Below are positions 27,272-42,332 of a DNA stretch of 64,000 nt, in pieces. Within the stretch, counting starts at the first letter, position 1. Each line of letters begins with the position of its first letter. The position numbers and the translations under genes were made by a program. Origin of the DNA: a virus; IMG/VR virus record IMGVR_UViG_3300034524_000181, positions 1 to 64,000 of that record. One strand, 5' to 3'. The notes beneath the pieces are model-generated. The model ran no database searches. It was not told the DNA's origin and saw only the letters and a program-made list of their open reading frames with translations.

Positions 27272-27769
27272 TCACTTAAGCGGCTCAGTAATTTCACCTG
27301 ATTCAGGGTCTACGGTTATTACGTCTTCACTGACAGGTTCAGTATCATGGCCTACGCGGGTACTGAATGCTTTGACCTGTTCGGAAAGCTTGGCTATCAG
27401 TGCATATTCGTCAGCGGTCAGATCCCGATCTACTGCAAACTGAGCTTGGGAATAGGTGATACCGCTTGAATTGGTCGCCTTTTTCAAAGAAAAGCGAGTA
27501 ACAACGCTGTTTGATTTTTTGCCTTTAGAAAGCAGCCTTTTGATGTAACGAGAGAACTCTTTCAACGATCCTGTGGGCAAAGAGAGTATCAACGGGAAAA
27601 TCTCCCCTTCACGCAGTACATATATCCTGCGGCGGTTCTTGCAAGCTTTGCTGCCGTTTTCCCCCGAACCAAACTGATTATATGGACATTTGGCACAGCT
27701 TCCTCCGGGGTCTCCTTCGCCGGTTATACCATCAAAGCTTCCGCAATCCGGTGGGTTACTGCCTCCGGT
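27272..27769 (-). pseudogene. 5'-truncated Cys-rich phage replication-module protein
   Basis: Phage-like frame [14 protein letters not shown]...[11 protein letters not shown]...ACKNRRR with no cognate start; abuts ilvB DNA. Confidence 0.7.
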
Positions 27770-28744
27770 ATGCCTGTAGCAACTACCTTAATGGGCTTAG
27801 GCGGTTTTCCTTCAACCCACCCCTTGTATACAGGATTGGTTGGAATGCATGGTACAAAAACTTCAAACCTTGCGGTTTCCAATTGTGACTTATTTATTGC
27901 TGTCGGCGCAAGGTTTAGTGATAGGGTAATAAGCGATGTAAAAAGATTTGCACCCAATGCAAAGATCATGCATATTGACATTGACCCGGCCGAAATAGGA
28001 AAAAATATTACTGTCCAGTATCCGATGGTTGGGAATATTAAAAAAATACTGCACAAACTAAATCAGATGATTGATGAAAACTAAAGAAAAGAATGGATTG
28101 AACAAATTCAACTTTGGAAAGAGCAGTATCCGCTCTCCTATGATAAAAATTCATCATTAAAACCCCAGTTTATCATAGAAAAAATATATGAGCTTACAGA
28201 AGGAAAGTCCCTTATTACAACGGAAGTAGGTCAAAACCAATTGTGGGCTGCCCAATATTATAAATACACCGGACCCAGGACCTTTATATCCTCAGGCGGG
28301 CTAGGAACCATGGGTTATGGCCTCGGAGCATGCATTGGAGCACAAATTGGCAGACCGGATAAAAAGGTATTTAATATTGCAGGGGACGGAAGTTTCCGCA
28401 TGAACTGTAATGAACTTGCTACAGCTGTTGAATACAAATTACCTATTGTAGTGGTAATATTAAATAATCACGTACTTGGAATGGTAAGGCAGTGGCAGGA
28501 TCTCTTTTACGGCAGCCGTTTTTCATGCACTACCATCGATAGGGGAACCGATTTTGTAAAGCTTGCGGAAGCCTATGGCGCGAAAGGAATACATGTTACC
28601 AGCAATTATGAAGTGGAGGATGCAATAAAAGAAGCACTGGCGTCATCTGGTCCGGTAGTAATAAATTGCGAAATAGACAGGGATGAAAAGGTATTTCCAA
28701 TTGTACCACCCGGTGCACCCATTGTGGAAAGCATTGTTGAATAA
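27770..28744 (+). pseudogene. ilvB: Acetolactate synthase large subunit, 5'-truncated, with in-frame TAA at 28082-28084
   Basis: [33 protein letters not shown]; both ORF pieces are in one frame. Confidence 0.88.
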
Positions 28745-28768
28745 AATAATAGTCAAATTAAATAAACC

Positions 28769-28806
28769 ATAAGGGGCAGACACAGTTGTCCGTCCCTTAT
28801 TTTTTA
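28769..28806 (+). terminator. Intrinsic terminator after ilvB
   Basis: ATAAGGG..CCCTTAT stem plus T-run. Confidence 0.7.
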
Positions 28807-28873
28807 TGCATTTTAACGAGGTAGGTAGGACATAGCCATATATTTTTTTTGGCGCACAAAAGAATTCAAAAGG

Positions 28874-28902
28874 TTGCAATCTCTTATAAATAAAAGTATA
28901 AT
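28874..28902 (+). promoter_or_regulatory. sigmaA promoter for the corA leader
   Basis: TTGCAA-17-TATAAT. Confidence 0.75.
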
Positions 28903-28971
28903 ATCATTAGGTAATTAAATAAATTTTTAAAATAAAAAAACACAAGATTTAAGTAAAGGATGGTGATGTTA

Positions 28972-29124
28972 ATGGATACGGATCCTTATCCGAACCAAAG
29001 CAGTATGTATAGAAGTTTTTGCAAACAATATACATACGAGATGTATAAAAAAATTCAAAAGGGTTTGGCAGAGGAAGAGTATTTTTTGACATTGCCAGAA
29101 ATAATTTACTTTAATACCGTATAG
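28972..29124 (+). CDS. Putative 50-aa leader peptide (MDTDPYP..., MgtL-like) upstream of corA
   Basis: AAGGA/GGTG RBS, ATG...TAG; 3' part complementary to a downstream anti-SD segment. Confidence 0.6.
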   Translation: MDTDPYPNQSSMYRSFCKQYTYEMYKKIQKGLAEEEYFLTLPEIIYFNTV

Positions 29125-29250
29125 TGGTGGGTTAGGTTGTCAAAAAGCTACTCTTTCTCGTCATGCACAAGTTAAATGCACTTTAAATGATGTAGTCAAT
29201 AGATCCACGAACTGCAATTTAAAACAGACTAAGAGAATGGGGGTAGCAGA

Positions 29251-30183
29251 ATGCTATGTGTATACAAGACGATAGATGGAAAGATTCAAGAAATGGACAG
29301 GATTGAAGAGGGTTGCTGGATTAATCTAGTATCTCCGACTGAAAGTGAGATTGATAGCGTAGTGCAAGCACTTAATGTAGATCCCGGCTTTTTGAGAGCT
29401 GCGTTGGATGATGAAGAGGCATCGCGAATTGAATCGGAGGATAACCAAACACTTATTATTATCGATATTCCATTAGCGCAACAAGATGAGGATACAATTT
29501 ACTTTTCCACCATACCCTTAGGTATAGTTATTACTGATAAAAATATAGTTACCATATGTTTGAAGGAAAATTCCATAATTAATGAATTTTCAAATGGTAT
29601 TGTAAAGTCCGTTTATACGAATATGAAGACGAGATTTGTCCTGCAGATATTCTTTAGAGTTGCAACCCGGTTTTTACAGTATCTTAAGCAAATAGATAGA
29701 ATAAGTAACGAAGTGGAGAATCAGCTTCATAAATCTATGAAGAATAAGGAGCTAATCCAACTGCTTGGACTAGAAAAAAGCTTGGTTTACTTCTCCACAT
29801 CCTTAAAAGCTAATGAAATTACAATGGAAAAGATTCTAAGAGGTAGAACTATTAAGCTTTACGAAGAAGATCAGGACTTGTTGGAAGATGTAATTATTGA
29901 GAACAAGCAGGCTATCGAGATGTCTAATATATATAGCAGTATATTAAGCGGTATAATGGATGCCTATGCATCTATAATCTCAAATAATTTAAATATAGTA
30001 ATGAAGTTTTTAACATCCGTAACGATTGTACTGTCTTTGCCAACGATGGTAGCGAGTTTTTATGGTATGAATGTTGAGCTGCCGTTTCAGCATTCGCCCC
30101 ATGCCTTTTTGTTTACCATATCGTTGTCCCTTGTATTGGTATGTACAGCTACATTCATTTTGGTAAAAAGAAAAATGTTTTGA
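29251..30183 (+). CDS. corA: CorA family Mg2+/Co2+ transporter
   Basis: C-terminal two TM helices with YGMN signature. Confidence 0.93.
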   Translation: MLCVYKTIDGKIQEMDRIEEGCWINLVSPTESEIDSVVQALNVDPGFLRAALDDEEASRIESEDNQTLIIIDIPLAQQDEDTIYFSTIPLGIVITDKNIVTICLKENSIINEFSNGIVKSVYTNMKTRFVLQIFFRVATRFLQYLKQIDRISNEVENQLHKSMKNKELIQLLGLEKSLVYFSTSLKANEITMEKILRGRTIKLYEEDQDLLEDVIIENKQAIEMSNIYSSILSGIMDAYASIISNNLNIVMKFLTSVTIVLSLPTMVASFYGMNVELPFQHSPHAFLFTISLSLVLVCTATFILVKRKMF

Positions 30184-30189
30184 AAATAA

Positions 30190-30342
30190 TTGACTTTTTA
30201 GGAGATTTGACGTATACTATTGATTAAGTTAGTTTAAGATGAGTTGAGTAATTGTATAAGCTGAGATGAGTTTAGATGAGATGAGCCTATAACCGAGTTT
30301 TTTGAAATAACAGCGGTAGGGTTTTTCGTCCTACCGCTTTTT
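30190..30342 (+). promoter_or_regulatory. Promoter plus TRAP-type attenuator leader (11 NAG triplets) plus terminator; regulated gene absent
   Basis: TTGACT-17-TATACT; AAG/TAG/GAG triplets at 30226-30285, mostly 2-nt spacers; AGCGGTAGG..CCTACCGCT-T-run. Confidence 0.7.
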
Positions 30343-30349
30343 GTATTTT

Positions 30350-31834
30350 GGCTCTTTGTCAATAGTTGGGGTGGGATTTTTTGCAATCCCGCTCCATTAC
30401 TATTTTTAGCCCTAATTTTGTGTTATGAATGAGATGGATAGAGATATACGTGTTTTAGGGTGCACTTAATAAACCTAGCTAAAATGTAGGCTTTTTACAG
30501 GTATTCACTTTTAAGATGTTTACCTAGTACAGTGAAGAATCCTATTGCGAAATCTATAAAAGTTTTTAAGTCCAAAAGATATTCGCTTTAACACCTTGAT
30601 CTTATTGTTGAAACCTTCAGTTGGGCCGTTAGTATAACCATATTTAAAAGCATTTTTAATTTCTTTATGCCATCTTCTATATGTATCTGCACACTTCTCA
30701 AACTCTGGTATTCCAGAGCTTTCTGCATTTTGAATCCACTTAGCTAATTCCATACATTGGTAGGAATATTTATCGCTTTGGCAGATTTCATAAAACCATT
30801 CTTTAAGTTTATGGGCAATACGTAAGTCATCATTATATAAAAGCATTAAATCAACAGCTTCTTTATTCTCATCCTTAAGTTTGTGATAGCGGGTTAAAAT
30901 CAGTTTTCTACTCCGTTTATAGTATTTTCTAAGAGTAGTAGTCATAGATTTCTGTATGCGTTTTCTCACATTTTCAATAGCCCAAGTTACATGCCTAATA
31001 AAGTGGTATTTATCAATAATAATTATGGCTTTAGGGAAAAATACTTTAGCTAAATCAACGTAAGGTTGCCACATATCACATACAAAGAATTTAACCTTAT
31101 TTCTTTCCTCACGAGAAAATCGCTTGAAATAACTCACAAGATCACTTTGACATCTATCAGGAATAATATCTAAAACTTTGTTCTTTTCGCCATCAACAAG
31201 AATACATTGATACTTTCCAGTCTCTGCATTACCCTTAAATTCATCAATACAGAGAACCTTAGGTAGTGTAGGAATACCATAATTAATATGATTAAAAATA
31301 CGAATAACAGTAGAAACAGAAACATTAGCAGATTTAGCCACAGAAGTTAGACTAGTTAGCTTAGTAAGCTCTTGGCAAACAAAAAATGCTAATCGATTAG
31401 TCATGCGTTGATAACGAGGCAGAAAGTTATATGACTCATAAAACCTCTTTCCACAAGAGCAAACATACCTTCTTTTGCGAAGTACAAGGTAGGTATGCTT
31501 AAACTGTAAAGGTAAATCCTTAATTGTTTGTTCTCTATAATCATGAATTCTAGAGGTTTTAGAGCCACAAGCAGGACAAGTATGTTTTCGTGGCTCTGTT
31601 GTAATATAGATCTTAACAAAAGAATCACCATGTGATATTTTAGTTACTTTAATCCCTTTTAAATTTAATAATTGTGTGATAAAATTAGATTGCACTTGTG
31701 AATAAACCTCCTTTTTATGTTTGTTTGAGCAATTAACATTTTAGCAGGTTTATTTCACGAGTGCATTTTATTTTTAGGGAAAAATAAATGTTGGAGTACA
31801 TTTTTTTATACACCCCAACATTTATTATAGATCC
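30350..31834 (-). mobile_element. ISL3-family insertion sequence
   Basis: 24-bp imperfect TIRs GGCTCTTTGTCAATAGTTGGGGTG / GGATCTATAATAAATGTTGGGGTG; no direct target duplication. Confidence 0.9.
30520..31695 (-). CDS. ISL3 family transposase
   Basis: CPACG zinc finger, IDEF, CDMW, DKYH, EGFNNKIK. Confidence 0.93.
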   Translation of the reverse strand: MQSNFITQLLNLKGIKVTKISHGDSFVKIYITTEPRKHTCPACGSKTSRIHDYREQTIKDLPLQFKHTYLVLRKRRYVCSCGKRFYESYNFLPRYQRMTNRLAFFVCQELTKLTSLTSVAKSANVSVSTVIRIFNHINYGIPTLPKVLCIDEFKGNAETGKYQCILVDGEKNKVLDIIPDRCQSDLVSYFKRFSREERNKVKFFVCDMWQPYVDLAKVFFPKAIIIIDKYHFIRHVTWAIENVRKRIQKSMTTTLRKYYKRSRKLILTRYHKLKDENKEAVDLMLLYNDDLRIAHKLKEWFYEICQSDKYSYQCMELAKWIQNAESSGIPEFEKCADTYRRWHKEIKNAFKYGYTNGPTEGFNNKIKVLKRISFGLKNFYRFRNRILHCTR

Positions 31835-33203: not shown

Positions 33204-35741
33204 CTAACTGTTTTTATTTAAGTTCATATTGTTGAAAATTTTTACAATTTCATACCAAAGAACTGATACAGCTGCAATACCTACGGCTATAAAGAACTGT
33301 GATAATGATAATGGTGCAAGATTTAGAATTCTGTTAAGAGGAGTGTAAAGCATTAACAAAAGACCTGCAACAGTACCAATAATAACAGCCCACATAACTT
33401 TATCTTTAATTAGATATTTCATCGTCTTAAATGCATTATCATAATTTGAACTGTTTACTTGAACTAAAAATAAATTTGCAATCATTATAATACTAAGTCC
33501 CATTGTTCTCGCCAATTGTGGATTTTCAGGTTGTTGTTTAATAAGCATATAATATGTTCCAAAAGAAGCTATGAATATAGCCAGCCCCTGTAGAATACTT
33601 TTTGTCAATACTCCAGCTGTAAGAATTTTTTCATTAGGATCCCTTGGTTTTCGATCCATTATGTTACTTTCAGCAGGCTGACGTTCTAAAACAATAGAAC
33701 AAGTTGGGTCAATAATAAGCTCTAAAAGCACAACATGCACAGGAAGCAATAAAAGACTTGCAGGACTAATATTTAAAAGAGGTGCAAACAGTGATGCAAA
33801 TGCAATAGGAATATGAATAGTAAATACATAACCTATAGCTTTTTTGATGTTATCATAAATTCTTCTTCCATCTTCAATTGTATGAACAATTGTTGAAAAG
33901 TTATCATCCATCAAAATTAAATCAGCAGCTTCTCTTGCAACCTCAGAGCCACGCTTGCCCATTGCAATTCCTATATCTGCATATTTAAGAGCTGGAGCAT
34001 CATTCACACCATCACCTGTCATGGCAACAACTTCACCATTTTCCTTAAATGCTTTAACTATGCGCATTTTATGTTCCGGCAAAACTCTTGAAAATATATT
34101 TGCATCATGGACACGTTCCATAAGTTCAGAATCTGTCATATTGTTCAGTTCATCACCAGTAATAATATTATCGCTGTTTTTCATTCCAATTTGTTTTGCA
34201 ATGGAACTTGCCGTGATTCCATTATCACCAGTAATCATTACTACACGAACCCCTGCTTTATTACACATCTTGATATCTTCTTTCACAGATTCTCTTGGAG
34301 GATCAGCAAGACCAATTAAACCTAAAAATGTTAACTTGCAATCAGTAATATTATCAGGAATGTCAGATTCACTCTTTGGATTCATTGTACCAACAGCTAT
34401 TACTCTTAAACCTTCCCTTGACATTTCATTTATTTTATTTTCAATTTGCTTTCTTTGTTCGTCTGATAATTTGCATATAGTCAATATACTTTCAGGCGAA
34501 CCTTTTGCTGCAATAACAATTTCTCCATCATGTCGCCAAACATGCCCCATCATTTTAAGTTCATTTGTAAATGCATATTCGGATATCAGTTCACCACCAA
34601 ATAAATGGTCTTTTGAAATTCCAATGCTTTCACAATGTAAAAGCATTGCCTTCTCCATTGGGTCATATGCATCTGTTTCACAGCCAAGCCCCATAATTTC
34701 ACATAAGTTATAATTATCATCATCAATTGCCCAAGTATCCTGAACAGCCATTTTGTTCATTGTAATCGTACCTGTTTTATCTACACAAAGAACTGATACA
34801 GCACCTAATGTTTCAACAGAAGAAAGCTTGTGAACAAGAGACTGTTTTTTAGCAAGACGCCATGCACCCATAGATAAGAACACTGTCAATATAACAGGAA
34901 ATTCTTCAGGTATCATAGCCATTGCTAAAGTTATTCCTGATAAAATACTTTCAATAATTCTATCTGTAAATTTATGATCCGGAATATTGAAATAAATTAT
35001 TACTGTAACAAGAATAAATAAAATACCTGCTATTATTGCACATGTCTTAACAATGCTGTTTGTTTGCTTTTCTAAAGGCGTTGGACTGTCTGGAGCAGAT
35101 GCTACATTAATACCTATTTTACCATACTCTGTATTAGAGCCTATTTTATCTACAAGAATTGTAGCACTTCCTTGCGTAACGAGAGTACCTGCATAGCAGT
35201 AATCCTTGCGCCAATAATCTGTATTATTTTTATCGGCATTATCAACAGTCACTTTCCAAACACCTACAGATTCACCTGTAAGAGATGATTCGTCAACACA
35301 AAGATCACTTGCCTTGATAACCTCACCATCAGCAGGAATTTTAACGCCTTCGTTGATTATCATTAAATCAGTTGGGACTAAGTCTTCACTTAAAATTGTC
35401 TGCTCTTTTCCATCTCGAATAACTATTACATGTGGAGCTGATAAATCTTTAAGTGCATTTAATGTTTTGTCTGTCTTCCATTCCTGAATTATTTCTATAC
35501 TGATGATACCAATTACAAAGATTAGCATAATCACACCATCTCGTGGTTCACCTAATATAAAATAGATGATTGATGCAACAATTAACAATAAAAACATCGG
35601 CTCTAAAACAATGTGAATAACCTTGCTAATAAAACTTTGTTTTTTTACAGTTGCCAGTTCGTTTTTACCAAACTGTTCCTGCAACTTTTTGGCTTGCTCA
35701 CTTGTCAAGCCTTCTAAATTTTGATTTTTTTGTTCTGTCAT
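33204..35741 (-). CDS. Cation-transporting P-type ATPase (P2-like)
   Basis: TGES, IPEEFP, DKTGT, KGSPE, GDGVNDAPAL. Confidence 0.93.
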   Translation of the reverse strand: MTEQKNQNLEGLTSEQAKKLQEQFGKNELATVKKQSFISKVIHIVLEPMFLLLIVASIIYFILGEPRDGVIMLIFVIGIISIEIIQEWKTDKTLNALKDLSAPHVIVIRDGKEQTILSEDLVPTDLMIINEGVKIPADGEVIKASDLCVDESSLTGESVGVWKVTVDNADKNNTDYWRKDYCYAGTLVTQGSATILVDKIGSNTEYGKIGINVASAPDSPTPLEKQTNSIVKTCAIIAGILFILVTVIIYFNIPDHKFTDRIIESILSGITLAMAMIPEEFPVILTVFLSMGAWRLAKKQSLVHKLSSVETLGAVSVLCVDKTGTITMNKMAVQDTWAIDDDNYNLCEIMGLGCETDAYDPMEKAMLLHCESIGISKDHLFGGELISEYAFTNELKMMGHVWRHDGEIVIAAKGSPESILTICKLSDEQRKQIENKINEMSREGLRVIAVGTMNPKSESDIPDNITDCKLTFLGLIGLADPPRESVKEDIKMCNKAGVRVVMITGDNGITASSIAKQIGMKNSDNIITGDELNNMTDSELMERVHDANIFSRVLPEHKMRIVKAFKENGEVVAMTGDGVNDAPALKYADIGIAMGKRGSEVAREAADLILMDDNFSTIVHTIEDGRRIYDNIKKAIGYVFTIHIPIAFASLFAPLLNISPASLLLLPVHVVLLELIIDPTCSIVLERQPAESNIMDRKPRDPNEKILTAGVLTKSILQGLAIFIASFGTYYMLIKQQPENPQLARTMGLSIIMIANLFLVQVNSSNYDNAFKTMKYLIKDKVMWAVIIGTVAGLLLMLYTPLNRILNLAPLSLSQFFIAVGIAAVSVLWYEIVKIFNNMNLNKNS

Positions 35742-35856
35742 AATAAGTTACCTCCAGTTTTTGCTTTTTAAGCATTATTAAGATAGCTCTATGGCATTGC
35801 AAATTCTAATTATATGTTTCAAATAAGTATAAAAAAACACACCTATGAAACATTTT

Positions 35857-35946
35857 ACTGTCCCACAGATGTGAAATAATTCAATCTGCTGCTGTTTCCA
35901 GCCCGGCCCCACGAACAATATTGTTCATCGCCTGCTCAGTTTGTAC
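35857..35946 (-). ncRNA. NiCo (czcD) riboswitch
   Basis: GUACAAACUGAGCAGGC...GCCGGGCUG..CAGCAGCAGAU...AUCUGUGGGACAGU; overlapping terminator hairpin plus U-run at 35830-35873. Confidence 0.85.
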
Positions 35947-35980
35947 CGTAGATTTATATGCAGTGCAAAGAGATTTTTAT

Positions 35981-38725: not shown

Positions 38726-40297
38726 TCAATTTTCAATGTCTATACTAATGCCTGACTTAAATTCCACTTCAACCCTGCCATCGTGAATCGTAACTTTTTC
38801 AATAAGCCTCCTTACTAACTGTTCATCATATTCCTCTAACTCGCAGGATTGCTCATTAAAGAAATCAGTCATTTCAGCTATTCGTTGCCTTTTCCCTTCT
38901 CGCTCTGCATTCTCTACAAGTGCATTTTGCTTTAACTCCCGAAGTCGATAAATTTCATCAGCCACATCTTCATAGTCATTCTTGGATTTTGCTTGTATAA
39001 GGAGCTGTTGTTGTAACTCTTCCAATTTTCTATCAATATCATCGGTGGCATTATCATTTTTTTCATTAAGTACGGTAGCTATGTTTTTCTGCAAGGTTGA
39101 GAGGAAAGGCTCTTTGTTAGCCAAAAGTTCGTTAATAGCCCTGACCACTGCTGTCTGTAATGTCTCCTCGTTTATGGTAGGGGCCGTACATTCAGATCCT
39201 TTTTCCTCTAAACGGCTGACGCATCTCCAAACAATAGACTTGTAACCTCGGTTATTCCAGTGTACTCGTCGGTAAATATCACCGCATTGCCCGCAGTAAA
39301 CAATACTCGATAAGGCATATTTACTACTATAGACTCGCTTTTTACCGCCCTTACCGCCTCGGAGATTCGCTCTTCGAACCATCTCTTCTTGAACCTGCAT
39401 AAAAAGGTCACGGGGAATGATAGGTTCATGGCTGTTTTCCACATAATACTGGGGAACAATACCATTATTCTTGACACGCTTTTTGGAAAGGAAGTCAACC
39501 GTATAGGTCTTTTGCAAGAGTGCATCCCCGATGTATTTTTCATTCTGCAGTATCTTTTTCAGTGTTTCAGGTCTCCATTTTGCTTTGCCTGCCGCTGTTA
39601 GAACACCGTCTGCTTCCAGTCCTCTTGCTATTTGTAAAAGGCTCGCACCCTCAAGGTACTCCCTGTAAATCCGTTTAACAACCTCAGCACCCTCTGGGTC
39701 AATCACCAATTGCTTATTTTCATCTTTGGTGTATCCAAGGAAACGCTTGTGGTTGACCTGAACTTCACCTTGCTGATAGCGATACTGAATACCCAGCTTA
39801 ACGTTTTGGCTTAAGGACTGGCTTTCCTGTTGGGCAAGGGATGCCATAATGGTCAGCAGGACTTCACCCTTAGAATCCATGGTGTTTATATTCTCTTTTT
39901 CAAAGAACACAGCGATGTTTTTATCCTTTAACTGACGGATGTATTTAAGGCAGTCCAACGTGTTTCTGGCAAATCGGCTTATGGATTTTGTGATGATCAT
40001 GTCAATATTGCCTGCCATGCACTCTTCAATCATGCGGTTGAATTCATCACGCTTTTTGGTATTTGTACCTGTGATACCGTCATCCGCAAAAATCCCTGCC
40101 AATTCCCATTCCTTGTTCTTCTTAATATAATTTGTATAATGCTCAATCTGAATGTCATAGCTCGAAGCCTGCTCCTCACTATCCGTTGAAACACGGCAGT
40201 AAGCAGCCACTCGAATTTTGGGTTTGCTTTCACTATTTTTATTATTTCCGACTCGTTTAATTGCTGGAATCACTGTTACATTCCTACTTACCGCCAC
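38726..40297 (-). CDS. Large serine recombinase
   Basis: [16 protein letters not shown], zinc ribbon CGQCG. Confidence 0.93.
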
Positions 40298-40300
40298 TGG

Positions 40301-40714
40301 TTACACCTCACTTTCTATCAAACTGTAAGCATATTCTGCCTGCTTGTATGGGTCTTCATATTTTTGCACCAGAGACTTTGCTTTGAACTTTACAGGATAA
40401 TCCGTTTTTGGTTCATCTTTAGGCTCCCATATCCTTCCTAGCTTTTCTGCTCGTTTTCGTCTTTCTACTCTGGCTTTTTCAAAGGTCTCCTCATCAATAA
40501 TTGGAGGGTAGAATTCATCGCCAAGGTAGTGCTTATTCTGCAACATCTTACTTACTGTGGCATGGTAGCAGTCTATCCCAGCTTTTTTAGCAGCACCCTT
40601 CAAAGAAAGTCCTGCCAAGTATCCTGAAAATAATTCTTTTACCCGCTCCGATGCTATTTCATCCACAACAGCCTTACCGTTTTCAATTCTATATCCATAG
40701 GGTATGTGACCCAT
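40301..40714 (-). CDS. Small recombinase-domain-only protein
   Basis: PYGY...LQNKHYLG...PPIID..F; no catalytic domain. Confidence 0.85.
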   Translation of the reverse strand: MGHIPYGYRIENGKAVVDEIASERVKELFSGYLAGLSLKGAAKKAGIDCYHATVSKMLQNKHYLGDEFYPPIIDEETFEKARVERRKRAEKLGRIWEPKDEPKTDYPVKFKAKSLVQKYEDPYKQAEYAYSLIESEV

Positions 40715-42280
40715 CTAATTCACCAACCTTTCCTTCAATGTGATTCCGCATTTTAATTCAAATCCAACTATCTCTCGTGAATAAACAATAATCTTCTCTG
40801 CGTAATTTTCAAACAGCTCATCCTCATAGGTTTTGAGCATTTTGGACTTAGTGGTAAACTTAAGCAGACGGTCAACCTCGTCTACTTTTGCAAAATTGCC
40901 ATTGATGGAACGAGTAAGTTGATCCTTTTCAGCAAGAAGTCTTTCTCTTTCTGCTTCCAGTGAAATCTTTTCTTTATTAAACAGAGCAGGTTCCAGATAT
41001 CCTTTGGCCAGTAAACCTGTCAGCATCTGGCTCTGCTCCATGTTGTTTTCAATCTTAGTTTCCAACTCTTCAATTCTGAGAAAACTCGCTGCACTATTCT
41101 GGTTACGTAACCCATCCAAAAGTGGTTTTAATATGAACTTCTGACCGAAAATGAGTTTATTCATCATCGTAACAAATGCCGTCTTTATATCATCATCTCG
41201 AATGAACTGCATAGAACATTCCGTTATCTGGCTTATATGCTTGCTACAGCACCAAGCAATGTATTTTCTTGTTCCAGACGAATGAATCCGTCTTTTAAAG
41301 GTACTGCCACATTCCGAGCAGATAATTTTGCTGGAGAAAGAATATCGGTTTTGATATTTGTTATTGCGCTTTTCGATGCCTTTTTCCTTTGCTCTCTGAG
41401 TGAGAATGGCATCCACAGCTTCAAAATCTTCATGGCTGATAATTGCCTCATGGTGGTTTTCTACTAGATACATATTTTTCTCACCATAATTGGTGTGCCT
41501 GTTAAAATGGCGGTCAGTATAGGTCTTTTGCAAAATAACATCGCCAGTATATTTTTCATTGGTCAGAATCCCTCGAATGGTAGTAGCCGTCCAACGACCA
41601 CCTCTTTTTGATGGAATACCCTTTTGATTAAGATCATCTGCAATTTTCTGTGTACCTTTTCCCGATAATACCTCTGCAAAAATATACTTCACAACTTCAG
41701 CCTGCTTAGGGTTTATCACCATTTGACCATCAATGTTGTCATAACCATATGGTGGATATGAAATCTTAAAAGTTCCGTTCTGAAATCGTCTTTGAATTGC
41801 CCACTTAGTATTTTCCGAAATGGAAATGGACTCACTTTCTGCAAGCCCACTTAATATAGAAAGCATCAACTCACTTTCCATTGATTGGGTATTGATATTC
41901 TCTTTCTCAAAATAGATGTAAATACCCAGGTCCAACAGTTTACGAACCATCTCCAAACAATCCGTAGTGTTTCTCGCAAACCTACTAATGGACTTTGTAA
42001 TAATTAAGTCAATCTTCTTATTTTCACAATCTGACAGCATTCTGAGAAGTTCCGTTCGGTTTTCTTTTTTGGTGCCACTAATTCCCTCATCATAATACAA
42101 GCCAACATACTCCCATTCTGGGTTTGCCTTTATGTAAGTCTCATAATGGGATTTTTGTGCTTCTAGGCTCACTAACTGTTCATCACTGTCCGTAGAAACA
42201 CGACAGTATGCGGCCACTCGTAGTTTAGGTTTGATAATCGATGCAACCTTATTTCCTTCTATTTTCGTTATCTTTTTCAT
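40715..42280 (-). CDS. Large serine recombinase
   Basis: [26 protein letters not shown]. Confidence 0.93.
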   Translation of the reverse strand: MKKITKIEGNKVASIIKPKLRVAAYCRVSTDSDEQLVSLEAQKSHYETYIKANPEWEYVGLYYDEGISGTKKENRTELLRMLSDCENKKIDLIITKSISRFARNTTDCLEMVRKLLDLGIYIYFEKENINTQSMESELMLSILSGLAESESISISENTKWAIQRRFQNGTFKISYPPYGYDNIDGQMVINPKQAEVVKYIFAEVLSGKGTQKIADDLNQKGIPSKRGGRWTATTIRGILTNEKYTGDVILQKTYTDRHFNRHTNYGEKNMYLVENHHEAIISHEDFEAVDAILTQRAKEKGIEKRNNKYQNRYSFSSKIICSECGSTFKRRIHSSGTRKYIAWCCSKHISQITECSMQFIRDDDIKTAFVTMMNKLIFGQKFILKPLLDGLRNQNSAASFLRIEELETKIENNMEQSQMLTGLLAKGYLEPALFNKEKISLEAERERLLAEKDQLTRSINGNFAKVDEVDRLLKFTTKSKMLKTYEDELFENYAEKIIVYSREIVGFELKCGITLKERLVN

Positions 42281-42332
42281 CGCCTCACCTCCTTCTTGGT
42301 AGGTCACATATTACCTCTGAACGCCCAGTATA

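Follow-up and report, generated by a model that had tools for sequence, protein, structure and literature searches.

The 64,000-nt window analysed here, the first 64 kb of an 87-kb provirus record (IMG/VR IMGVR_UViG_3300034524_000181), carries a corA gene whose leader of roughly 340 nt contains an upstream ORF (uORF) beginning MDTDPYPNQSS. The leader harbors a real, conserved and translated regulatory uORF set in a predicted four-segment switch that sequesters the Shine-Dalgarno (SD) sequence of corA. Because corA follows an M-D-x-D-P frame placed in alternately pairing RNA, and because relatives share this peptide start ahead of both corA and mgtE, the leader is probably a ribosome-based Mg2+ sensor of a kind undescribed in Gram-positive bacteria. 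We consider it somewhat better than an even bet, with a probability of roughly 0.55, that it works as a ribosome-operated translational attenuator in which a ribosome held at MDxDP switches corA on, low Mg2+ being the likeliest condition.

An earlier reading of the DNA from its letters alone (the sequence-only reading) had seen a promoter, a leader ORF with an MgtL-like N-terminus and a three-segment switch at this place. The elements were all found where it had put them, and the ORF was recovered in five orthologous leaders; the interpretation as a whole is partly supported. Instead of three segments there are four, as the SD, start and first codons of the uORF (segment z) are predicted to pair with A and to lock the OFF state. 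The elements of the locus are as follows:

28874..28902, + strand: sigma-A type promoter, TTGCAA (-35), 17 nt, TATAAT (-10); 10/12 consensus matches; conserved in genome G002
28958..28967, + strand: SD of the uORF, GGATGGTGAT, 4 nt 5' of the ATG; GGTGGTGAT is common to the five orthologous leaders
28961..28996, + strand: segment z (segment 1), spanning the SD, the start codon and codons 1-8 of the uORF; partner of A
28972..29124, + strand: regulatory uORF, MDTDPYPNQSS..., 50 codons plus stop; ATG at 28972, stop at 29122-29124, M-D-x-D-P as codons 1-5
29062..29097, + strand: segment A (segment 2), 3' part of the uORF; pairs with z or B (29066-29091 in the sequence-only reading)
29135..29166, + strand: segment B (segment 3, anti-SD); pairs with A or C (29138-29163 in the sequence-only reading)
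29233..29247, + strand: segment C (segment 4), containing the corA SD GGGGG (29239-29243); pairs with B
29251..30183, + strand: corA, ATG at 29251, CorA-family Mg2+ channel of 310 aa; Pfam CorA E = 2e-55, GMN motif present
30312..30338, + strand: terminator-like hairpin with T run, 3' of corA

The uORF, whose SD we take to be complementary to the 3' end of 16S rRNA, ends 126 nt before the start of corA. The core of segment A is GAGTATTTTTTGACAT (29077-29092), and segment B lies 13 nt or more past the uORF stop. The promoter match alone proves nothing, because such sites are no commoner in the region than in shuffled sequence (7 found, 8.4 expected by chance); transcription from it would start near 28909. 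There is no intrinsic terminator in the corA leader and none after B:C. An Rfam scan of positions 28740-29320 with E values up to 10, which would include any model of a gamma-proteobacterial corA leader if the library holds one, returned neither an M-box nor any other family, its nine matches being unrelated and at chance level.

The whole leader folds with -80.2 kcal/mol (z = -3.4, 0/100 shuffles as good), and its minimum-free-energy structure combines z:A with B:C and contains no A:B. In the window, the z:A duplex reaches -36.7/-38.1 kcal/mol and the A:B duplex -33.5/-34.1 kcal/mol, and for neither was any of 200 or of 300 shuffles as good, while B:C is modest at -17.5/-19.0 kcal/mol (11/200 and 9/300 shuffles as good). 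The near-complementarity of A to B and the alternative pairing of B with C over the corA SD, both predicted from the letters alone, are thereby borne out, the latter in the free folds of 6/6 leaders. The resulting topology is the classical one of 1:2 plus 3:4 versus 2:3, with the SD of the regulated gene in segment 4.

Relatives of the CorA protein in three public collections reached 79% identity at best (locus L001) and then at most 62%; identities were at most 62% in metagenome_contigs and at most 56% in viral_contigs, and an exact DNA pattern found no match in viral_contigs. Via a peptide search centred on the genome of L001 we reached G002. Within this small order of Clostridia, comprising 11 genomes, five have a CorA ortholog: G002 (94% identity), G010 (82%), G003 (81%), G001 (79%) and G005 (76%), henceforth G2, G10, G3, G1 and G5, with W for the window leader. 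The leader is kept in 5/5 genomes with this corA, including the uORF, its strong SD, M-D-x-D-P and segments z, A, B and C. Loss of the leader ORF and the pairings among relatives had been named as grounds for giving up the sequence-only reading; both are conserved in the five orthologs.

In the six leaders compared, that is the window and the five orthologs, the uORF has 40-50 codons, starts with ATG in five cases and with GTG in one, and encodes the N-terminal consensus M-D-[TIA]-D-P-[YHD]-[PTE]-[NR]. The conserved core is therefore not D-P-Y-P, as had been proposed, but M-D-x-D-P (M-[DE]-x-[DG]-P more widely), since Tyr6 and Pro7 vary among the six. Counted from a position 4 nt 3' of the A core, the stop codon follows after 15-25 nt, and it precedes the B core by 19-81 nt. 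Segment B sits about 40-110 nt 5' of corA and is shifted relative to C between leaders, the pairing being kept. When the pattern of the A core, GAGTATYTTTTGRCAT, was sought in 401 genomes of the class, eight genomes matched, with the leader context in these five only; the reversed pattern, used as a control, gave six matches. Five other A-core sites were judged to be chance occurrences, as they read as protein-coding sequence and have no z-, B- or MDxDP-type motif nearby. Peptide searches are insensitive: a profile of three peptides retrieved three proteins among 5.8e9, and among the 11 genomes of the order it found only G1 and G2, missing the leader-bearing G3, G5 and G10. At class level (400 genomes), the same profile gave G1, G2 and five weak matches (E = 6e-4 to 9e-3) in G242, G321, G110, G204 and G149 (loci L197-L201).

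The pairings recur in the orthologs. Across the six leaders, z:A ranges from -25 to -38 and A:B from -19 to -34 kcal/mol, with 0-2/300 shuffles as good. B:C lies between -15 and -19 kcal/mol and is equalled by 0-9/300 shuffles in five leaders (0-3/300 in G1, G3, G10 and G5); in G2 it does not beat shuffles (45/300 as good). In a MAFFT alignment of the six, 87% of the z:A cells are paired, as compared with 43-53% with slid partners, and 94% of the A:B cells, as compared with 41-49%; one A-U / G.U / G-C series occurs in A:B. MAFFT put B in the wrong place in L001, and likewise C in the window and G2; B:C was evaluated by scripts.

The uORFs of the window and G2 differ by 29 substitutions (19% differences), which are spread 11/11/7 over the codon positions and yield a dN/dS of 1.5; residues in the interior of the uORF are therefore free. 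The corresponding corA genes show 12/9/104 substitutions, a dN/dS of 0.03 and a dS of 0.9, and the leader diverges far more slowly than the synonymous sites of corA. In four leaders segment A falls in frame 0, in the other two in frame +1, for which reason it must be regarded as an RNA element. Even so, no stop codon interrupts the uORF frame from the conserved start to the end of A in 6/6 leaders. When the unalignable spacer is shuffled, this is achieved by chance in 4.5-10% of cases per lineage, with a product of 1.2e-6 over five lineages if these are assumed to be independent, while the other two frames contain 2-8 stops each. We thus state with confidence that the uORF is under selection to stay open through A. 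The contigs of all three RNA libraries described further below carry a G to A exchange at 29021; it turns uORF codon 17 from Cys into Tyr and fits an unconstrained interior.

To look beyond the order, the 400 nt upstream of corA were scanned in 152 of 163 CorA loci (50-79% identity; L001-L163). A sense-strand uORF of 6-90 codons starting with M-[DE]-x-[DENG]-P is present in 42/152 loci, equalling 37 distinct leaders, and an SD-like word accompanies it in 42/42. For mgtE, a 300-genome sample of the class was searched and the 30 best-matching MgtE loci were taken (L228-L257), of which 28 extended far enough upstream; here the motif uORF precedes the gene in 13/28 loci (MDSDPLP, MEPGPLP, MDPGPLP and others) and has its stop no more than about 35 nt away from the main start codon, with 13-17 nt upstream as the commonest position. 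On the reverse complement, used as a control for both sets, no uORF of the M-[DE]-x-[DENG]-P type was found in the 152 corA and 28 mgtE loci. G2 itself has a second uORF at its mgtE (L222:1514-1615, + strand; MDYDPLPILN..., 34 codons) with the same SD as in the corA leader; it ends 15 nt before mgtE (L222:1634-2965, + strand; Pfam MgtE), and neither an M-box nor any other Rfam family was found at this uORF.

The codons at the uORF start point to selection on the encoded residues. In the six leaders, Asp4 is encoded by GAT or GAC and Pro5 by CCT or CCG. Among the 37 distinct corA leaders, codon 2 is GAC, GAT, GAA or GAG in 18, 11, 6 and 2 cases, codon 4 specifies Asp in 19, Gly in 17 and Asn (AAT) in one, and codon 5 is CCT, CCG or CCA in 27, 9 and 1 cases. 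As judged from these codons, the start of the peptide is constrained as protein. Asp, Glu and Pro occupy four of the six residues after Met in MDTDPYP and three to four in the orthologs, the criterion for such a cluster being taken from a preprint (bioRxiv 10.1101/2021.02.02.429294).

In principle, the ORF could serve by virtue of its product, a functional small protein of 50 aa such as a partner of CorA, or it could be a chance frame. Apart from its prediction by gene callers in three lineages, little speaks for a functional product and we consider this highly improbable: The dN/dS of 1.5 comes without third-position bias, the uORFs are between 40 and 50 codons long and the reading frame of the C-terminal half differs among them. 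Furthermore, seven peptides matched no Pfam or NCBIfam family at E values up to 10, although peptides of this size are too short for homology tests and the presence of an MgtL model in the libraries is unconfirmed. A match to Pfam T4_RIIA1 (E = 0.13) was dismissed as noise. A chance frame is excluded by the statistic on the frame open through A together with the absence of motif uORFs from the strand controls. Alternatively, Mg2+ or temperature might act directly on z:A, A:B and B:C, and the uORF would then be a passenger or a folding aid. Such an RNA-only switch would account for the conservation of four islands as nucleotides, for the reading of segment A in two frames and for the low divergence of the leader (19% in the uORF versus a dS of 0.9). 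It would not explain why the frame is open through A in 6/6 leaders, why a strong SD and an ATG or GTG start are found in 37/37 wider leaders, why codons 2 and 5 vary just synonymously or conservatively and why the motif has no matches on the opposite strand. We regard it as very unlikely, though clearly less so than a functional peptide product.

The textbook mechanism of Mg2+ control in Firmicutes is the M-box riboswitch. The sequence-only reading was right that none is present in the window leader. An M-box (RF00380) resides directly upstream of the uORF in 4/5 orthologs, namely G1, G3, G10 and G5 (145.8-154.3 bits), and the covariance model found none in the window or at the corA locus of G2 (L166). 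With an M-box in four of the five orthologous leaders, the uORF switch acts in addition to the riboswitch in relatives and has not displaced it clade-wide. According to an nhmmer M-box profile of our own, the 152 corA loci comprise 11 with uORF and M-box, 31 with the uORF only, 13 with the M-box only and 97 with neither.

These associations bear on the nature of the signal. The same four-segment attenuator could respond to something other than Mg2+, such as translation inhibitors, the activity of EF-P or ABCF proteins, the charging of Pro- or Asp-tRNA, or polyamines. Its architecture is that of erm, cat and trp attenuators, which sense other things, 31/42 uORF-bearing corA loci lack an M-box, and the motif has a single invariant proline, EttA and EF-P being reported to modulate sequences of this kind (PMC11282234; PMC6460261). 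On the other hand, the motif accompanies the genes of two unrelated Mg2+ importers, corA and mgtE, the uORF stands behind an M-box in 4/5 orthologs and 11/42 wider loci, and runs of regulatory codons as in amino-acid attenuators are absent. A signal other than Mg2+ is thus unlikely, albeit the least unlikely of the alternatives considered here. Both Mg2+ as the signal and the polarity of the switch are well motivated by the association with the M-box, corA and mgtE.

The effect of ribosomes was modelled by equilibrium folding, with a 30-nt block representing the ribosome and its P-site on the stated codon. In the free RNA of all six leaders, A pairs with z (probability 0.70-0.84) and B with C (0.51-0.76), and the corA SD is closed. 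A block on codons 3-7 shifts A to B, with pairing probabilities of 0.92 in the window, 0.82-0.85 in G2 and 0.72-0.75 in G1, so that a ribosome at the start of the uORF switches 4/6 leaders (W, G2, G1 and G3) to A:B. With the P-site on codon 7, A:B still stands at 0.74-0.92 in W, G2 and G1. When the A core is blocked, B:C is retained in 6/6 leaders, and it also persists with a block at the uORF stop, except in the window, where B:C drops to 0.32 with A:B at 0.41. Predicted accessibility of the corA SD rises clearly in G2, G1 and G3. In the wider family, a ribosome on codon 3 raises it by 0.15 or more in 10/37 corA and 5/13 mgtE leaders and lowers it in 0/50. The uORF start regions pair better with their own leader than with those of others (-24.4 versus -19.4 kcal/mol, 0/10000 permutations), to which matched GC content may contribute, and a crude search for the best duplex gave z-scores of -2 or lower for z:A in 15/37, for C:B in 7/37 and for A:B in 8/17 leaders in which A precedes B.

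The following sequence of events is compatible with these folds. Undisturbed RNA would adopt z:A plus B:C, with both SDs closed and corA off. Ribosomes could enter the uORF at a stage when z is still unpaired and A not yet transcribed. A ribosome reading through would unwind A, B would pair with C and corA would stay off. Were ribosomes held or repeatedly lost at M-D-x-D-P, z would be occupied and A untranslated; A could then pair with B, free the corA SD and turn the gene on. M-D-x-D-P may well be a hard start, with Asp as a poor donor, Pro as a poor acceptor and a very short nascent chain, and it resembles the EPDP of MgtL. The likeliest condition to slow these codons would be low cytoplasmic Mg2+.

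The polarity could also be the reverse. Efficient translation of the uORF would then open z:A and keep z busy, A:B would form behind the ribosomes and activate corA, and failure at MDxDP would lower its expression. In agreement with this, free RNA is off in 6/6 leaders with the uORF SD sequestered, which implies that the RNA does not leave its ground state without some translation; the uORFs in mgtE leaders stop about 13-17 nt before the main start, a geometry reminiscent of translational coupling, and translation of mgtQ is reported to promote mgtB (PMC8092293). However, B:C is kept in the folds when a ribosome occupies A or the stop (with the B:C value of 0.32 for the window at the stop), and the cell would be left with less CorA at low Mg2+, opposite to the action of the M-box that precedes the uORF in relatives. 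Reverse polarity therefore appears quite unlikely, if marginally less so than control by the RNA alone.

Several observations weigh against an attenuator turned on by ribosomes held at MDxDP. Pausing at this motif, the ON/OFF polarity and Mg2+ as the signal are what we infer from the elements and their company. Were ribosomes to drop off without z being occupied again, the four-segment design would predict OFF and not ON. In G3, pairing of A with B falls from 0.79 with the block at codon 3 to 0.56 at codon 5, and the switch is lost (0) with the P-site at codon 7. G10 and G5 keep B:C even with z blocked, and neither shows a rise in SD accessibility; the A:B value for G10 is only 0.06-0.08 with the block at codon 3 or 5 and 0 with it at codon 7, and that for G5 only 0.20-0.27. 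In the window, a ribosome held at the uORF start favours A:B, as the sequence-only reading had expected; exposure of the SD, the second half of that expectation, is not robust. In one set-up the SD mostly stays paired after the switch (accessibility 0.23 to 0.24-0.27), because the freed SD finds weak alternative partners, and in the other it goes from 0.20 to 0.40. For the corA set as a whole, the shift in SD accessibility is not significant (Wilcoxon p = 0.10 at codon 3), and RNAalifold gave no consensus structure for 17 wider-family leaders. Gly instead of Asp at position 4 in 17/37 wider-family leaders fits destabilization purely by acidic residues less well. Alignment of the relatives bore out the expected retention of M-D-x-D-P and of segments A, B and C, while the second Pro of the proposed MDxDPxP varies and covariation is not significant: its score was reached by 50/500 shuffles for z:A and by 180/500 for A:B. 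Covariation lends the helices weak support, as the arms hardly vary and nearly all variation is one-sided.

Near-identical metatranscriptome contigs from three libraries bridge leader and corA (28946-29795, 28935-29312 and 28905-29281), which counts in favour of the attenuator, yet such contigs show neither ends nor strand and may include DNA. They begin at 28905, 28935 and 28946, and none spans 28858-28904, just 5' of the predicted start; this is a weak hint on the start of transcription, as the real 5' end of a transcript cannot be read from a contig. By itself, a gap in coverage such as 28858-28904 proves nothing, and contig X18 spans only 29117-29361.

To our knowledge, sensing of Mg2+ by leader peptides with N-terminal Asp, Glu and Pro has so far been documented in enterobacteria, i.e., for MgtL and mgtQ. 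MgtL of Salmonella and E. coli resembles the uORF described here in being a short frame in the leader of a Mg2+ importer gene, mgtA, with Asp or Glu and Pro right after Met (MEPDPT... versus MDTDPYP here and MEPGPLP in one mgtE leader). It is shorter, with 17 codons as opposed to the 40-50 that must run through segment A here, its output is Rho-dependent termination of transcription instead of the predicted opening of an SD, and the hosts of the present system are Clostridia. Sequence homology between MgtL and these uORF peptides is not detectable, the peptides being too short for homology tests. The EPDP after the Met of MgtL is reported to destabilize the ribosome and to abort translation within the first six residues, and N-terminal clusters of Asp, Glu and Pro generally slow translation or end it prematurely, an effect enhanced by low Mg2+; failed translation of the MgtL codons at low Mg2+ then alters mRNA folding and turns the transporter on (bioRxiv 10.1101/2021.02.02.429294; PMC11282234; PMC11552253).

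A closer match in output is mgtQ of Salmonella, with Asp2 and Glu5. A ribosome on region 1 is described as allowing 2:3 pairing, which frees the ribosome binding site of mgtB, so that acidic, ribosome-destabilizing codons control a Mg2+ transporter at the level of translation (PMC8092293). Control by a leader peptide at translation initiation in Clostridia, as the sequence-only reading had it, is supported as far as the uORF and the predicted SD switch are concerned, while the mechanism itself already has a precedent in mgtQ-mgtB (PMC8092293). According to the same report, mgtQ has 8 codons, lies between genes of an operon and carries no proline requirement (PMC8092293). In contrast, the uORF of the window has 50 codons and an invariant Pro5, resides in a 5' leader with its own SD and start in segment 1 and precedes a gene of the CorA family.

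In erm/cat and trp-type attenuators, 1:2 plus 3:4 pairing competes with 2:3, the leader peptide stalls in segment 1, and in erm segment 4 holds the regulated SD. The four-segment wiring of the corA leader is alike, whereas no antibiotic inducer is expected, the stall site would be at codons 2-7 and no terminator follows B:C. The M-box acts on the same genes within the clade and immediately precedes the uORF in 4/5 orthologous leaders; it differs in being an RNA aptamer acting through a terminator, while the element in the corA leader is proposed to need a ribosome. Leaders with uORFs are also reported elsewhere. Enterobacterial and other gamma-proteobacterial corA genes have the uORF corL, whose translation is inversely related to corA expression (PMC11552253), and in the pe20 operon of M. 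tuberculosis a conserved small uORF, whose N-terminal proline is likewise conserved, comes after an Mbox (PMC12810186). The former shares with our case the uORF in a corA leader and the latter the order of Mbox and uORF, but both act through Rho, corL is described as having few Asp, Glu and Pro residues (PMC11552253) and the mycobacterial uORF as genus-specific (PMC12810186). Taken together, the corA leader would work like MgtL and mgtQ and be wired like erm-type attenuators, but membership in these families cannot be demonstrated for it; no Pfam, NCBIfam or Rfam family covers the peptides or the leader. A literature search that left out most subscription journals and supplements found no description of such uORFs in Firmicutes.

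The corA gene of the window is host DNA caught between prophages and not phage cargo, because the gene order ilvB-uORF-corA is identical in the bacterial genome G2. The host belongs to an uncultured lineage of Clostridia. Pfam annotation delimits one prophage block at 1-27214 and a second at 43885-64000, with a short chromosomal island of roughly 10 kb (~27.3 to 38 kb) between them that contains an ilvB remnant, the uORF leader with corA, an ISL3 transposase and a P-type ATPase behind a NiCo riboswitch. Between the host island and the second block lie two serine recombinase genes (38726-42307). It seems that two distinct prophage-like blocks have been joined in the provirus record; each has its own tail, portal and terminase genes, and they share just one 1.5-kb stretch with 75% nucleotide identity. 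The ilvB remnant (27755-28741, + strand) is 89% identical in one frame to residues 91-421 of the partial IlvB of G2; it contains an in-frame stop (28082-28084), lacks the N-terminal part and adjoins a phage DNA polymerase A gene. Just 3' of corA is the ISL3-family transposase gene (30520-31695, - strand), and from about 30345 (~30345-30400) the RNA-library contigs show very high summed depth and many loose ends, as expected for a multi-copy repeat. The NiCo riboswitch (35856-35949, - strand; 77.7 bits), directly upstream of the P-type cation ATPase gene (33204-35741, - strand), is the sole Rfam match in the whole window.

It is conceivable, at a little less than even odds, that the window leader belongs to a large class of Mg2+ sensors, as yet undescribed, that rely on the ribosome and occur in Clostridia and related Firmicutes, the class being defined by M-[DE]-x-[DG]-P-(x)-P uORFs before corA or mgtE, some standing alone and some behind an M-box. 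The likeness to MgtL would then have arisen by convergence, and in the lineage of the window the M-box would have been lost, leaving the peptide switch alone to govern corA. If this is true, ribosome-mediated Mg2+ sensing operates widely in Gram-positive anaerobes and the principle acts on two unrelated importers, through translation initiation and not through Rho, often stacked behind an M-box. Where the riboswitch is present, control would be two-tiered, with the aptamer acting on transcription and the nascent peptide on translation initiation. Dozens of natural variants, with Asp or Gly at position 4, different spacings and three- or four-segment designs, would be available for dissection, and the finding would bear on the ribosome itself as a general sensor of cytoplasmic Mg2+.

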